A stretch of 64,000 bases of DNA from Kondoa subrosea (lineage: Eukaryota): assembly GCA_039545335.1 (NCBI GenBank), contig BCIN01000001.1:860208-924207 (forward strand), given 5' to 3'. The translations under genes were made by a program, and so were the position numbers. Positions 15,928 through 62,345 of this stretch are shown one piece after another (the first letter of the stretch is position 1; each line of letters begins with the position of its first letter). The notes below the pieces were generated by a model. It worked only from the letters and a program-made list of their open reading frames with translations, was not told where the DNA came from and made no database searches.

Positions 15928-17530
15928 ATGCAAGAATTTCTGAAACTTGTGGTAATGGCAGGCGCTAGAGCGTTCGTTGGATCATCAGATGAATCTCATC
16001 CTGGCACACATATGCGCTTGCCTGAGATGAAGACAGATCTTGAGGATCCTCTGGTAATGCATGACTTCAGATTTCGTTAAAGGACTTGCAAACTTATGGA
16101 ACTGTGCTTAGACTCTTTCTACATGGATTGAGAGCACGCCTGGACAATACTTCTCTGTCAATTTCACTTGCGATCAAGCGTCGTGCTTCATTCGTATGCT
16201 CATAGGTAAGCACGACTAGAACGTGCAGCACTTGAAGACTGACAGGGGAGTTAGACGGCAAGCAACAGGTATGTAGGGCAATCTCAGCCAGTCTCGGACT
16301 GATCTCTAGTGTTCTCTTTGTCATACAGAAAAAGTGGCATCTTCGACAAGGCGAACGAATGTGCTTATCTTCTGTCAGAACTGGTGCAAATGAAGTCCGA
16401 CCTTTTGTCTTTGCGAAGTAAGTGTCACACCTCAATTCCCAGACGCTTTCTGATAGTTTCATAGAACTCGAGTAACGGACGACGAAAGCCAGATCTGCGC
16501 AGACAGCGCCATCATTAACGGGCTTGGTACAAGTGGGTACCAATCTAGCTATAAACAGCGAATTATGCTGATACCTTGACCGCAGTCGTCCTAGAAGTGA
16601 AAAGGATCGAAGAAAACGGACCAGAACTCAGAAGAAATCCTCGACCTCCTACTCCTTTCGAGCCATCTATCACAGACAATACTTTCCACGAAAGCAAATC
16701 CAAACTTCTAGGCAATTGTGTTGGTTTGGGTGAACCGCAATTCGTTCCTGCGGCAGATCCATATCGCGCTAGAGGATTAATGCCAAAATGGGATGTTATT
16801 GAAGAAGATCGAGGGAAGCTTTGGTTGCGTTTCGTTTTCCATTATCGTGCTGGTCGTAAGCAGTGTCGTTCCTTATTATTGCTTCTGCAATTTAGCAACG
16901 GGTGCCATTTACAGATGTCCTGGAAATGCTCGGTTTTAAAGAACCCTCTAAAGATCCGCCTCCTCCTGCTCGCGTAGCCCATTCACCAGCTAAATCAGTA
17001 GCGACAAATCAATTTGATGGAGGTGCGTGGCGCTCATAGTCTTGCTCATTGTAGAGCTTAGTACAGAATGTTGTCCACAGGATGGTCACCTGAAGGCTCA
17101 CCTGAACCGCAGCAGAGAGCGGCTTCAACAGCTACGAACGGAGATGTGCAATACCTCGCTACGGCTCAAAAACAACTTCCTGGTGAAGCTATCGTGATCC
17201 CTGATTCGGACGATGAAGATGACGAGGATGCAGAGACTATGGCTCTCAAGGTCAGTGCTTCTCGAAGATGTTACTTTTTGACTTCTTTGATATTTATGCG
17301 ACTGCCAGGCTCGAATCGATGCTGTGAAAGAAGAGAATGCCCGACTGAGGGAAAGAGCAGCAAGTGTTGTGGTCAAGCGCGAACGATTGGACAGTGCACC
17401 AGCTGAATTGCCTCCTTCCAAACGAGGAAGAGCAGAAGATGAAGGAGAGGTCAGTCTGATCGCAAGAAAACCGCATACTCAGTAGCTCAAGATCGTGCAG
17501 ATCGATTTGACTCAAGAGGATGATGAATAG
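15928..17530 (+). CDS. Conserved fungal hypothetical protein (DUF7918-like), copy B; start codon uncertain
   Basis: TWIESTPGQYFSVNF, RPFVFAK..VTDDESQIC, FHESKSKLLG and RFVFHYR match the motifs of copy A. Ends LKIVQIDLTQEDDE*. Confidence 0.65.
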
Positions 17531-55534: not shown

Positions 55535-57066
55535 ATGAAGCTGCCTGCTGAAGTACTGGTAAAATGCGTGGAGTAATGCTCGACGAAAAGTCAGCTGAAG
55601 AACTTTGGCGCAACAAGCAAGCTACTGAGTAACTTATTCTGAGACGTCTCCAAAGACATTCGCTAATGCCTGGACAAGATCAGACAGCCAAAAAAATCAT
55701 GTCCTCTAGTCTTTTCAAGGAGCACGTTTCTTCCCCGGCATTGCTGGAAGCACTCAAGTCAAATCTCAGCCTAGGCAAGCTAGTCCTTGATGTCGCCGTT
55801 GACATGCGGCTGGAACCCATCAGAATCTCCGACGAGGATGACGAGGATGCAGCAAGAGAGATTGGAACTAATTTAGCTAGTGTACGAGCTTCTGAAAGTA
55901 GGTATTTGGCTCGGCTAGTCGTCGACTGTGCTGATCGCTCATCAGTGAACGCGGAGAAGAAATTACTTACTGGGCAGATCATCCTTCTCTGCTGCCCTAA
56001 TATTAAAACTTTGCATCTCTCTGTTGGCCTGAGCAAGCATGAAAAATCGGCTTTTCTCTACCAGCCCAATCTACCATGCTACCACGATCTTGCGGCTCTT
56101 TCGTGCATCAGTCAACTGACAACTTTTAGTATTGAAGAATCCTCCTTCACGGGACCCATCGCTTACAGAGATATCGATCGATTCTTGGATCTTTGTCCTC
56201 GGCTAGTCAATGTCGATCTCTCTGGTATCAGACTCAGCTGCTTCGATATTGGACGCGACAGGAGAAGCTGGAGAGATCAATTAATCTCTTTCAACTATAT
56301 TGAATGTGAAAGCCCATTGCCGGACGTCAATTTCGTCCCAAGGGACAATGAAAATCTTAGTTATTTGTTGGAGAAATCGGCATCAAGTCTTTGCGACCTT
56401 TCTTTGGCCCGACGCCCTTCCGAAAGGCAATGCCCCATCAGCTTGATGATTAACATTCGGACCTCCTTAGAAGGCTCAGCAGAACGGATCAAAGCCTCTT
56501 TTCCTCGATTGACTACATTGGATTTGGCTTTTGTGGATCTAGAAGTACTCACTGATGAAGATTGGTCTACGTTCTTCGACAGTTTGCCCGCACTAGAAGA
56601 ATTCAGGCTAATATCACTCGGCACCATTACTGCGGGTCAAGCAGAAGCATTCGTTCATGGATTGGCTAGTTCTGAAAGACATATTCGAAGGACCGGAATA
56701 CACTGCAAAGATCCTGACGCAAGTGCTGAAGGACACATTGCACCCAACATATTCTTACCTTTACAAGATCGAGATCGGTTTCCAAGCCTGGAATACTGCA
56801 CGATCTGCTACAAAGCAGCAGTACAGAAAGTCGCTGAAGAACTGGGCTTGGGACGAGAATACAATCGCGAAGAAGTCAGCGAAGACTTATTGCATGAATA
56901 CCAAAAATCGTCTTTGAACTTTGAAGAAGGTACAGCGAAAATCAACTTCTTAATCTATTTGGATGCAAAAATACCAATGTATCTTACGGCTATCAACGGA
57001 AAGCCCGATCGTTATTGTGCTGGGGATAATGATGTTACAATAGACAGGATGTTGTCCACTGGATAA
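55535..57066 (+). pseudogene. F-box/LRR(RNI)-like gene with an in-frame TAA inside the F-box (pseudogene, null allele or sequence error)
   Basis: MKLPAEVLVKCVE*CSTKSQLKNFGATSKLL (TAA at 55574-55576). An intron then joins in frame to the 466-aa ORF with LRR-like CPNIKTLHL, CPRLVNVDLS, FPRLTTLDL, LPALEEFRL. Confidence 0.6.
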
Positions 57067-57084
57067 GTATATATATATGCGCAA

Positions 57085-57467
57085 TCACTCTTTCTGCTCG
57101 GGTGACATTGCTCCCTGTTTTAGAAGTTCAGCTCAGTTCTCAAAAGCGATACAAGGCAGCCTACCGTCGTCAATTCTTCTGTGATTGCCTTTTCCAGTGC
57201 ATCAATTCGCGTCGAAAGGCTCTGTACTGCTCGCGAGATCAGCGCTGCGAGAGACATGAACAAGGCGCATACATCTTTCAGAGGCCTGCTCTGACAGAGT
57301 ATCCAGACTAGCTTCGAGCGTATCCAAAGAGGTCTCAACAAAAGCAAGCTGAAAAGAGAGATGAGACCAGACACGGTGCAGACATCTTGAAAGCTGACCA
57401 GCTCTTGAGGACTCGTAATCTGAGGATCCTGCAGCAGTGCAGCCTGTTTCCTTTGAGGAGTGCTCAT
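57085..57467 (-). CDS. HSBP1: Heat shock factor binding protein 1 family (small coiled coil), 4 exons
   Basis: MSTPQRKQAALLQDPQITSPQEL|LAFVETSLDTLEASLDTLSEQASER|LQSLSTRIDALEKAITEELTT|GAMSPEQKE*. Matches the HSBP1 pattern (..MSSRIDDLEKNI). Confidence 0.8.
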
Positions 57468-57589
57468 GATATTTGGACGGTCGCAGTCATAAACAAGAGT
57501 CGCGAAGGGCAAGATGGACAGGCAGACTGAGGAGCTTGTCGCAAGCCCAATACATTTCTGAACTCAGATCTCTCAGGTTATACACATTC

Positions 57590-58994
57590 TTAGTCATATC
57601 TTCTTCTCCTGCTATCTCTTTCCGAACCGCGATCATCATCGTCTCTTCTTCTTCGTTCGCCCCTGTCTCCGCCTCCATCTCGATCAGCAGAACTGCCATT
57701 GGTCGCACCTGCTCCAATAATTTGCATTTCTGCTGCTCGTTCTTGATCTTTAGCTGAAGGGAAGAGTTTCCGCTCAACGCGCTGCTGTGCTTCTAGCTCG
57801 GATCTGGCCCAGGCATCAGCGAGAAGGTCAAAGTTGGGCCTATGAAGTCCAACTCACAATAGAGCTGGTGAGGGTGCAGAACGATGAATGCTGAATACCA
57901 ATACAAAATGAGCACAAGATCCGTATTCTCAAGTAAGCAACTCACAAATTACAGAACCCTCCTCTGTTGCAAGAGCCTAATGAAAATAGTATTAGTTGCT
58001 GGAAAACCGCGATCCTACAGATCTTACCCATTTCGTGCTGCCGACAGCATCTGCGCAAGAAACTCAGTAGTTGCCCGTCTGATGCGGGAGATTAGCTTAC
58101 GCTGTGAGAAAAGAAGAACTATCAGCTATGTATATAAATGACAGCACTGTATGCTCACCTTCTCTAAAATCTGTGACTGGCGATAATTCTGCGAAAAGAG
58201 GTTTGCCTGTAAGATGAAGAGGTTCATATCAACTGGTGCTGAAGGAAAAGACCGTCTTCACTTGCCTGCGTACCACTTGTTGTTCAGATCTTCAACTGCA
58301 GCTTGAGCTTCATCTTCCCCTGTAAACAAGTATTAACGTTGATTGAAACGGCAATCCAATAACAGCTTACAATCATAACGAGCATATACGTTGCCAATCA
58401 GATGATCACCAACCTGCGAGGAAGTGGAACTGAGGTAAACGTCTAGACGTTAGCTGAATCCCAAACTCACATTATCGCACACATGCATTTCGAGCAAGTG
58501 ACCATACTTGACTAGCTGGCAATACACATCATCATAGAACTCATCAAAGTGCTTCTTCTTCTCCCTGTAAGCCACGGTGTCATAAGCAACTTCAGATTGC
58601 ACAATGAATGAGAATGGCCCACTCTGGTGTGATGCTTTCGTTCGCATGAGCAGGGTTAGTGTACATGTTGCAAATGACTAGAGTTTGTGAGTATTGCGGT
58701 TTGATGTGCTTGCGAGAACAGCGGTCCCCATGTCGGCATGCTCCAATTTTCAGATAGAAACTGTCCAAGTACGTTGAGGGCTTTGACGCGATTGTACAAC
58801 TGCGGAAGACAAACCTGCAATTGACTTTATCTTGCTCTGAACCATAGATGGCCTTGAAACAAGCAGATTCTGAGCAATTGACTTTCAACAGCCAGCAATG
58901 GCGAGCTTACAGCTAAATGGGAGGCTGTGACCCAAAGTAACAAAGCTATCAGATGTATTCTGAAGCTCTAGCTCTCAGGCTCACCTCCAGACAT
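57590..58994 (-). CDS. U2AF1: Splicing factor U2AF small subunit (U2AF35/U2AF23), about 14 short exons
   Basis: [87 protein letters not shown], and an R/D-rich tail. Confidence 0.95.
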
Positions 58995-59501
58995 GGCGGT
59001 TTCGTGATGAAGTTGCAATTCAAAGCGAATTCTCGAAGTCTGTCAAAACACACCAGGATGGAGCATCAATGAATGTGTGCTTTGCACTATACACGCCGAC
59101 TAGGAATACAATTTTCGAGAGATCCCCCTTTTCTCTGTTGAGATTTTCTGTGCCCAAAGTGAAGATGCTAGAAGATGCCAGATCCCAGAAAAATGCTTCC
59201 TCTTCTTGCCTGCCCTTTTCCCAGTATGCCCGCTTTTGATGACCTTTTGATGATTTGATTAGAAGAGATGAGAAAGTACAATTGTCAAAATAGTTGTTCA
59301 GGCGAAAGCGCCATTGTGAGATAATACAATTTTCGCTTGAGAATGAGAGATGCCGGTGAAAGTTGATATTAGTTGTGTCTTTGAGGGTAGTAGTAAGATT
59401 GAGGAACAGATTAGATTGCTGGTATTAACTCGACTTCTTGTTTATTGTTACAGTGCTTTTGAGTCGAACAGAATAATTTTTGAGACTTTGAGATTGAGAA
59501 T

Positions 59502-62345
59502 TTAGCAGCCAAGGTAGCGGTAGTTGAGTTCAGACATTTCTCGAGAAAGATAGCCCCAAGTCAGCTTGCCACCAATTGTAGGTTTGCCAGCTTCAACGCG
59601 ACGACGTTCCAATTCAGCTTCGTACCATTGCAAAGACCACATGAAGAGGACAGTTGGCTGTAAAGTTTGCGAAATCACTAGATGCTCAAGAGCAAAACCC
59701 GAACACCGACTCACCTGAATGAGAATGTTCAAACGACGACTTCGAGTAAGCAAATACGCCGATTGAAGATCTACCTCGCAATGCTTCATGACATAAGCAA
59801 TGACGAGTGAAGAACTCCTCGATACGCCAACTCTGCAATGCACCAACACTTTGCCTCCTTTTCTTCGAGCATCTTCAATGAATTCGTTGGAACGCTCGAA
59901 AAGGCCTTTGATAGGGTCAATTCCATCATCGCTGATACCTTGGAGATCAAGAACTTCAATGTTGCCCATTCTTTGTTCGAGCCAGAGTGAATTGGTAGGC
60001 AAACGCGCTTTGAGATTAATTGGGACATTGCCGAATCCAGTTGCGATGGGTGATTCGTTACCATCGCGAGGGGGAATAAGAGCAGTTTCGCCAATAGAAA
60101 CAACATGAGTGATACCGAGTTCTTTGAGCATGAGAGCGTTAGTCGCGTGATTGAGGTTACCAAGGTAGAGGAAAGGCAAGATGCGAGACGGGAAGTGACC
60201 ATCGAAGCGTTCGTTATAGAACCAGGGCGCAGCGATCATCTTGTCAGCCAAACTGGGCTGCTGGTAAGAACTTTGTCTGGTCAAAGCGGGAGTAGCAGGT
60301 GAACTTGATCGTGTGAATCGAGGTCGGAAAAGAGCTGGAGCAGGTGGAGAAGTCTCTACTACAGATTCAAGCTTGACTGAGCGACGTTCTTGATGTACCA
60401 AAGCGAGTAGACGGGTTTCTAATTGACCAAGAAGTTCGACATCATTTGGGTAAACAAAGAAACTGCGCTGAGCTTCGTGCTGAAGATGAAGATAAGCTTG
60501 AGGTAGGGTTAAACCACGATCGTACATGACATAGGCGAGAGCGAGAACAGAAGTATCGGTGTAGCCATCTGTCGTGTGAATAAGAACATTGCGAGGTGAC
60601 CATTTGGCTTCTTCGGGACTAAGTGAGCTCTTTGCTTTACGCCCACGAGAGAAGATAGAGGTAGGAGAAGCTGAGACAGGTTCGACTGGCCGTTTAGTTT
60701 GACGGCGAATCCAAACAACAAGTTGAATAACACTCTCCATGCTGGAAACTATGATGAGCTGGAACATCAAGAGCTGACAACAGGAAGCTCACAAGTTGAT
60801 CAGACTGCTCTGGGTAGTGCAGGCATCTCCAGTCGACAAACATTCTAGATGAGTGATTTGAGCAGGATCGACATTCTGCCCAGGCTTGATGTTGCGATGA
60901 ATGCGGTCGACCATGTTCTCATACCCTCTCAGAGCCTCAGTTGATGCCATAAGAGCTTTGTCATGAGCTTCAATGCAAATGCTGAAACCATGAGGATTAC
61001 CATCTTCCATTTCATCACGATCAAAGGAAGAGGAAGAATCGCTGCTGCTAATGTGTTGATGAGATCTTTTTGGGAGAGGTAAAGAATTGTAGGTGAGAGT
61101 ATCAGTTTCGAGCGCAGCAACCAAAACACCAAGTTCATCGCTTGAATCCATTCTCGCTGCTGATCTCTGAAGTTGCTGTCGAGCCACCGGTACATCTTGC
61201 GTATTGCCTAACCATACACCATCCGCAATTTGAGAAGCCTCAGTCAAAACTCGCATCTCTTCCTTTTCTTGGTTGAAGAAATCAATCTTGTTTCGAACGA
61301 AACCCATTGAATCCACTGCCACTAAATCAGGATAGTACTGTTCAAAGACTTCAAATCGATCTTCTACTACAAAGACGCGGTATTCGACCAGATCTTCAGC
61401 TGAATCCGAATCTGCCAATCGGCTTGCTCGCATGTCTTTCTGAGCTGCCAAGAATCGTTCAGCGGTAGGCAAAAGATCAACAGAAGAGAGACCATCTGCT
61501 GAGTAGATGACAATGTCGGAAACTGAAGCCAGCTTGGTTGCTTGCAGGCGGAAGTTGCGCAGGTTGATAGCGAAAGGAACTGCTGGTCGAGAAAAGCGAG
61601 GAGAACTTGAGTTTTTTAGTAGAAGATCTTCAGGTAGGAAAGCAGAAGTGAGAAGAGCGCAACGAGCTTCTGGACCATAGCTTGAACTAGAAGAACTTGC
61701 TAGACTTGGGTCAAAAGAATGGTCAAAAGAAGATGCTGAGCTCGAGTTGGAAGAAGAGCTGTTGGAAGAGGCATAAGATGAAATTGAAGCGAGTGAGTTG
61801 AGACGAGAGTGAGGTCGGAAGAACATGGCTTCGTTATCGCAAGTGACTGTTGTAAGCCCTCGAAATCTGGAAATTCATATCAGTCCAAGCGCAAGCTTTA
61901 TTGCGCAAAGCACTGACCTGGGAGTCTTCAGACCACCTTCACCGTATCCAAAGTAGTAAGCCTGCTGCGTTCCGCGCTGATCTGCGCCGTGAAGCCATGG
62001 AAACAAGATGTTCTCTGGTGTATCCAAAACAAAATCTTGAGCTTGAAGAGCATGATACTGAGCTGCAGAGAGGACTTTGATGTCTGGATTAGATGGATGG
62101 GAAGGATAGGTAGCGTCTTGCGGGTGCTGTAGGCCATGTATGTGAGATTTTGATACACGGTGTGATGAAGGACTTGGACGAATTGCTGGAATGTGAGCAG
62201 TGATGGCAGCGGACTCTTTTGCTGCCTGGCAAGTAGAGGAACGCAATTGCTCGGACGCTGCTAGTGATGCTTTTTGAACGGTAGAAGTGTGACCTGCAGC
62301 TGCGCTTGATCGCAGAGCCAAGGGATGCATAGTAGTTGTGGCCAT
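59502..62345 (-). CDS. PPS1: Dual-specificity protein phosphatase, Pps1-like
   Basis: Active-site VLVHCRVGVSRS, HFPSRILPFLYLGNLNHA, DDGID, LFPWLHG, INLRNF. The upstream DSP-like domain is degenerate (VLIHTTDGYTDTS). Confidence 0.88.

Follow-up and report, generated by a model that had tools for sequence, protein, structure and literature searches.

A probable one-base internal exon in the U2AF35 gene of a basidiomycete rich in introns

A single C at position 58101, read on the minus strand of the window (the whole 64,000-nucleotide stretch of DNA that we analyzed), is probably a constitutive internal exon of the gene for U2AF35, the small subunit of the splicing factor U2AF, and would lie between two complete U2-type introns of 57 and 50 nt. 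We show the anatomy of this gene, the need of its reading frame for one extra base between two longer exons and the conservation of the protein motif that spans this point. Here we set out the evidence that the C supplies that base, weigh other ways of splicing the region and consider how so small an exon might be handled.

Results

Identity and anatomy of the gene

Judged by its homologues, the minus-strand gene is the U2AF35 orthologue. A search that used exon 4 (45 aa) as the query matched 170 proteins, the best 120 of which were examined, and the named homologues among the matches listed are 35, 26 and 23 kDa U2AF subunits of basidiomycetes, with Puccinia, Rhodotorula and other Pucciniomycotina ranked at the top. 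The spliced model is 72–76% identical over 200–214 aa to proteins P0008 and P0011–P0016, whose source name is splicing factor U2AF 35 kDa subunit, which bears out the assignment to the U2AF small subunit made in a preliminary description of this DNA. Aligned with 11 relatives, the model is gap-free from approximately residue 4 to approximately residue 200, except for a variable stretch after zinc finger 1. Exon 4 matches the Pfam zf-CCCH family (PF00642) with an E value of 5.5e-06 (26.6 bits against a cut-off of 20.5), zinc finger 2 of the model has the form C-x8-C-x5-C-x3-H, and a profile built from 24 relatives matches Schizosaccharomyces pombe U2AF23 (PDB 4YH8) with an E value of 2.3e-101. 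The organism is an intron-dense basidiomycete, most like Pucciniomycotina. As the protein searches found no protein identical to the U2AF35 of the window, this organism seems to be unannotated.

When spliced by coordinates, the gene model yields an open coding sequence (CDS) of 741 nt, encoding 246 aa (Table 1). From 5′ to 3′, its exons measure 10, 14, 38, 138, 94, 43, 54, 48, 1, 23, 31, 33 and 214 nt and its introns 60, 58, 54, 58, 57, 51, 59, 57, 50, 51, 55 and 54 nt; 11 of the introns are GT-AG and one is GC-AG. The gene is very intron-dense, with 12 introns in 741 nt of CDS or approximately one per 60 nt, and it contains other small exons (10, 14, 23, 31 and 33 nt) besides the proposed one-base exon. 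Upstream, its neighbor (59505–60788, minus strand) is an open frame of 428 aa that contains the catalytic domain of dual-specificity phosphatases (PF00782, E value 2.5e-29). Beyond the 3′ end lies an uninterrupted open frame of 477 aa (55633–57063, plus strand), which matched no Pfam family at E ≤ 0.001; the presence of this uninterrupted frame beside a gene with 12 introns makes for a sharp contrast in intron density between neighboring genes.

Table 1. Coordinates of the U2AF35 gene and of the features around the proposed one-base exon (window positions)
Feature	Position	Strand	Description	Basis
U2AF35 (U2AF small subunit) gene	57590..58994	-	Start to stop codon; 13 exons, 12 introns	
Exon 4	58623..58760	-	138 nt; CCCH zinc finger 1	Pfam PF00642
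Intron 7	58207..58265	-	59 nt; only GC-AG intron of the gene (GCAAGT...CAG)	Gene model
Exon 8	58159..58206	-	48 nt; ends GAT TTT AGA GAA G at 58159; last G is base 1 of the Ala codon	Sequence
Intron A	58102..58158	-	57 nt; GTGAGC donor, CTGAT branch motif, CAG acceptor	Sequence and model
Proposed one-base exon (exon 9)	58101	-	C; would be the middle base of the Ala codon G-C-A	Sequence and model
Intron B	58051..58100	-	50 nt; GTAAGC donor, CTGAG branch-like motif, CAG acceptor	Sequence and model
Exon 10	58028..58050	-	23 nt; A is base 3 of the Ala codon, then CCRQHEM and base 1 of a Gly codon	Sequence

The reading frame and the protein motif call for one extra base

Exon 10 reads A TGC TGT CGG CAG CAC GAA ATG G and opens CCCH zinc finger 2. 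With the C at 58101 included, the frame is kept and the sequence DFRE-A-CCRQ is restored; without it, the frame is lost immediately past DFRE, and removal of all 108 nt leads to a stop after 178 residues. The Ala codon, which directly precedes the first Cys of zinc finger 2, can be assembled from bases present in the genome: G at 58159, C at 58101 and A at 58050. All coordinates and letters that the preliminary description gave for 58028–58206 are correct, including its division of this codon over three pieces.

The motif that the C restores is strongly conserved. Among the best 120 of the 170 matched proteins, DFRE(A/S)CCRQ is uninterrupted in all 73 homologues that contain it (66 with Ala, 7 with Ser), and the remaining 47, which are fragments or broken models without the motif, include none with an insertion at this point. 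The region also forms one ungapped match in each of 80 metagenome loci, the best 80 of 428 confirmed, a selection that favors cDNA and intron-poor genes, and S. pombe U2AF23, for which there is a solved structure (4YH8), likewise spans the motif in a single ungapped match. Since the motif is contiguous in homologues and loci, exactly one codon fits between GAA and TGC. Because the length of intron A is a multiple of three and it contains no in-frame stop, the case for the C as an exon rests on homology and splice signals and not on the frame alone. The earlier statement that the C is required is thus correct when the comparison is with a single 108-nt intron, which shifts the frame, but does not hold against retention of intron A or removal of an 80-nt intron, both of which are in frame.

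Two complete introns flank the C

Introns A and B are each complete alone, having a donor, a branch motif, an acceptor and the usual length. Their sizes resemble those of the other ten introns (60, 58, 54, 58, 57, 51, 59, 51, 55 and 54 nt), their donors, GTGAGC and GTAAGC, recur among these ten, and each has a branch motif and ends in CAG. The 3′ end of intron A is ...TTTTCTCACAG, where the A of CTGAT lies 21 nt from the end and the last 20 nt are 75% pyrimidines, and that of intron B is ...TCTTGCGCAG, where the A of CTGAG lies 14 nt from the end. Between them, CACAG C GTAAGC (58106–58095, minus strand) consists of an acceptor AG, one base and a donor GT. A single intron of 108 nt, by comparison, would be about twice the length of any other intron of the gene.

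The pattern of a full short intron, 1 nt and a second full short intron occurs once on the two strands of the 64-kb window, at the 58101 site, and is expected 0.03 times (mean of 100 dinucleotide shuffles of the window; maximum 1). Given the motif of the homologues, the two complete introns and this excess over expectation, the one-base exon that the preliminary description proposed is also, in our analysis, the best reading of the sequence.

Elsewhere in the window (16207–16335, plus strand), two intron-like units of 75 and approximately 60 nt abut with zero bases between them (...GCAACAG, then GTATGT). No other match in the window shows the paired-intron pattern with zero spacing, for which 0.02 matches are expected. 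The arrangement may represent a long intron that is removed in two steps, or may be due to chance.

Conservation and origin of the split

The Ala codon is uninterrupted in four related genomic loci, L056 (Sporidiobolales-like), L069 (agaric-like), L080 and L077, which have introns elsewhere. In an Agaricus model (P0038), the DFREACCRQ stretch is contiguous but lies in a shifted frame, and three tremellomycete-like ORFs (P0020, P0024 and P0028) continue across it without a break. As the split was seen in no related genomic locus that we read, conservation cannot be used as support, and the intron pair is not general but limited either to this species or to a lineage dense in introns. A conserved yAG-N-GT, for which the preliminary description proposed to check related U2AF1 genes, is accordingly absent from L056, L069, L080 and L077, none of which comes from a close relative. 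By contrast, the position of intron 7 is shared, in that homology in the public ORFs P0039, P0051 and P0059 of relatives stops following WYAG or WFNG. Also shared is the intron that follows VNCS, which is present in L056 as in the window gene.

A scan of genome contigs for the locus of a relative gave 38 pattern matches, none of which was confirmed. We also used the 43-aa ORF formed by exon 8 and intron A of the window to look in the protein collection for ORFs of relatives that run from DFRE into an intron; a close-match search returned 0 candidates, and a search for longer proteins returned 4, none significant. An origin of the pair by tandem duplication found no support, as the likeness of introns A and B does not stand out among the intron pairs (rank 45 of 66).

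Public models of U2AF35 from related basidiomycetes frequently break at small exons. P0010 is without 13 residues and P0032 without 12, and both P0061 and P0088 are without the start of finger 2.

Alternative readings of the site

Enumeration of all GT/GC-AG or AT-AC borders between exon 8 and exon 10 gave 25 single-intron models that are in frame and free of stops. All but two of these, considered below, delete conserved residues or use poor sites.

It is unlikely that intron A is coding or mostly retained, such that an exon extends from 58206 to 58101, only the 50-nt intron is removed and a protein of 265 aa carries 19 additional residues between DFRE and ACCRQ. Such a transcript would make sense as a message, since the 57 nt amount to 19 codons without an in-frame stop and neither the downstream frame nor the Ala codon is disturbed, and it is the model that an automatic predictor would probably pick. 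However, an insertion at this place is found in none of the 73 motif-bearing homologues (best 120 of 170) and none of the 80 loci (best 80 of 428), GTGAGC begins exactly where homology ends, and the series of CTGAT, pyrimidines and CAG ends one base before homology returns. Since single-intron patterns occur by chance approximately 55 times per 128 kb, a match at exactly these borders is improbable. Moreover, intron A read in frame has a coding-versus-intron trinucleotide score of -0.40, below every one of 46 nineteen-codon CDS windows (0.014 to 1.27), a score trained on small data, in part on the exons of U2AF35 itself and on only 557 nt of intron.

A different proposal, made in the preliminary description and in our view quite unlikely, concerns function: that the one-base exon is a regulated sensor and that U2AF35 controls its own synthesis through skipping and decay. 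What speaks for this idea is only the coincidence that a factor that reads AG has an extreme AG-N-GT arrangement in its own gene. The preliminary description supposed that skipping would create a target for nonsense-mediated decay (NMD), yet the C-skipped form, as predicted from the sequence, has its stop at 57795, 8 nt inside the last exon, and would encode a protein lacking finger 2; because of this location, it would not be a target of junction-dependent NMD. NMD that follows the long-3′UTR rule could still apply to it. In addition, low U2AF would be expected to cause skipping and still less U2AF, which is positive feedback and not homeostasis, and the absence of the split from the related loci seen (L056, L069, L080 and L077) argues against a conserved regulatory device.

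The second single-intron model, in which one 80-nt intron (58158–58079) is removed, is very unlikely. This intron would be canonical (GTGAGC donor, CAG acceptor at 58081–58079), in frame and stop-free, and has a branch-like CTAAT approximately 16 nt upstream of its acceptor, overlapping the intron B donor region. Its size is far outside the 50–60 nt range of the other introns, and the stronger pyrimidine tract and the CAG at 58102 come earlier. Its product, 255 aa with a net gain of nine residues, would exchange the invariant Ala for a ten-residue stretch, an insertion seen in no homologue (best 120 of 170) and no locus (best 80 of 428).

Least probable is that the site reflects an artefact or a dead gene, either because an indel beside 58159 or 58050 conceals a single 108-nt intron or because the gene is a decaying paralogue of a working copy elsewhere. 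An indel error typically shows itself as a discrepancy of one base. The sequencing runs that a search listed for this stretch were two DNA runs from one sample, with no RNA run among them. When Logan contigs of these DNA runs (word depths of 143 and 53; approximately 19 million letters in the two contig sets), which come from another assembly pipeline, were compared with 57300–59300, there were 0 differences and 0 gaps; as both runs derive from one sample, perhaps the source of the window, this comparison tests the assembler and not the sample. An assembly indel at the site is unlikely. Furthermore, the site is not a homopolymer, a perfect acceptor-N-donor arrangement would very rarely fall by chance in the middle of a 108-nt intron, and no damage is seen in the other 10 introns or anywhere in the ORF.

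Three further arrangements were rejected: a stwintron, in which a splice signal of the outer intron is split by an inner one and no base is left, would break the frame by removing all 108 nt, and no donor that gives an in-frame product without the C forms after intron A is removed, as read from the sequence; use of a GC donor would, by similar reasoning, give no in-frame product; and a recursive splice site is a zero-length exon at which acceptor and donor abut (AG/GT), whereas here one base stands between them.

Discussion

How would an exon of one base be spliced? Introns of 50–60 nt would probably be recognized across the intron (intron definition), in which case exon length would not be limiting. 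The AG of the intron A acceptor would also serve as positions -3 and -2 of the intron B donor, within the stretch that pairs with U1, such that U1 and the 3′ splice-site factors, bound at B and A respectively, would be expected to collide. Because of this overlap, we infer that introns A and B are not engaged together and are removed one after the other. If intron A were removed first, the ligated RNA would read ...GAAG C followed by GTAAGC, leaving the context of the B donor (AGC before GT) unchanged; if intron B were removed first, the A acceptor would be followed by C ATG.... Either order would give the same mRNA, containing G + C + A. RNA structure across the two introns is nothing unusual (z-score -0.13; 87 of 200 shuffles fold as well).

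No special function need be invoked for the one-base exon. The simplest possibility is that it consists of two intron positions one base apart, which may be tolerated in an intron-dense gene. One could also imagine, with no more than a slim chance of being right, that it is a working checkpoint, where the overlap of the A acceptor with the U1 site of B would make productive splicing depend on how fast and in what order 3′ splice sites are recognized, and three off-paths would tune U2AF35 activity. Skipping would give the protein that lacks finger 2, retention of A would add 19 residues and retention of B would lead to an immediate stop (at 58099 in the sequence). That the exon should sit in a gene whose product reads AG is a curiosity and would be important only if a regulated checkpoint were shown.

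If RNA confirms the one-base exon, a core spliceosome gene will join the very short list of genes that have one. The site would also be a natural and compact substrate (108 nt, with overlapping signals of its two short introns) that could be used to probe how the spliceosome handles an exon too small to bind and in what order neighboring introns are removed. It is, in addition, a trap for annotation, since a predictor would break U2AF35 or keep intron A and so report a false insertion of 19 residues. Our literature search, which was mostly by titles and abstracts and placed the gene list in the Coprinopsis cinerea supplements outside its range, found no report that links U2AF to a one-base exon, nor any that joins U2AF, microexons and basidiomycetes.

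The protein itself resembles its characterized counterparts. S. pombe U2AF23 and human U2AF35 (4YH8, 7C06 and 1JMT) have the same order of CCCH finger, UHM and CCCH finger as the window protein, and the DFRE-A-CCRQ stretch joins the UHM to finger 2. The window protein differs in having a C-terminal tail rich in Arg, Asp and Gly, and its gene in being cut by 12 introns.

One-base exons are rare, as the preliminary description noted, but are reported from fungi (PMC12940212; PMC12230235) as well as from plants, where it had placed them. In Arabidopsis APC11, cDNA proved such an exon, as did base substitutions, which reappeared in the cDNA (PMC4674806). As described there, the APC11 exon is like the one proposed here in being a single base between an acceptor AG and a donor GT, essential for the frame and missed by annotation; it differs in belonging to a plant gene with flanking introns that total 422 nt, whereas the window gene is fungal, has introns of 57 and 50 nt and is known from genomic sequence alone. 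A closer parallel is the one-base exon of the Fusarium P450 gene CYP621A (PMC12940212), also a fungal gene, where the base is the middle one of the codon of a conserved residue. The argument for it is the same as ours: an apparent intron approximately twice the usual length, an intronless relative as the ruler and AG and GT borders. While 20 orthologues share the Fusarium exon and SRA reads confirm it, the split in the window is seen in one genome, read from DNA alone, and in none of the orthologous loci that we saw.

The stwintrons and one-base intron shifts described in fungi (PMC5587772) are similar in that two successive U2-type reactions act on adjoining units and, in the shifts, intron positions lie one base apart in a conserved codon. 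A stwintron, however, is removed whole with nothing left, while the site in the window must keep one base. Finally, in Coprinopsis cinerea, which is also a basidiomycete, a long-read annotation contains 13 one-base exons in 13 genes, together with 57 two-base and 27 three-base exons (PMC12230235). These counts suggest that one-base exons, if rare, are a regular feature of intron-rich basidiomycete genes.
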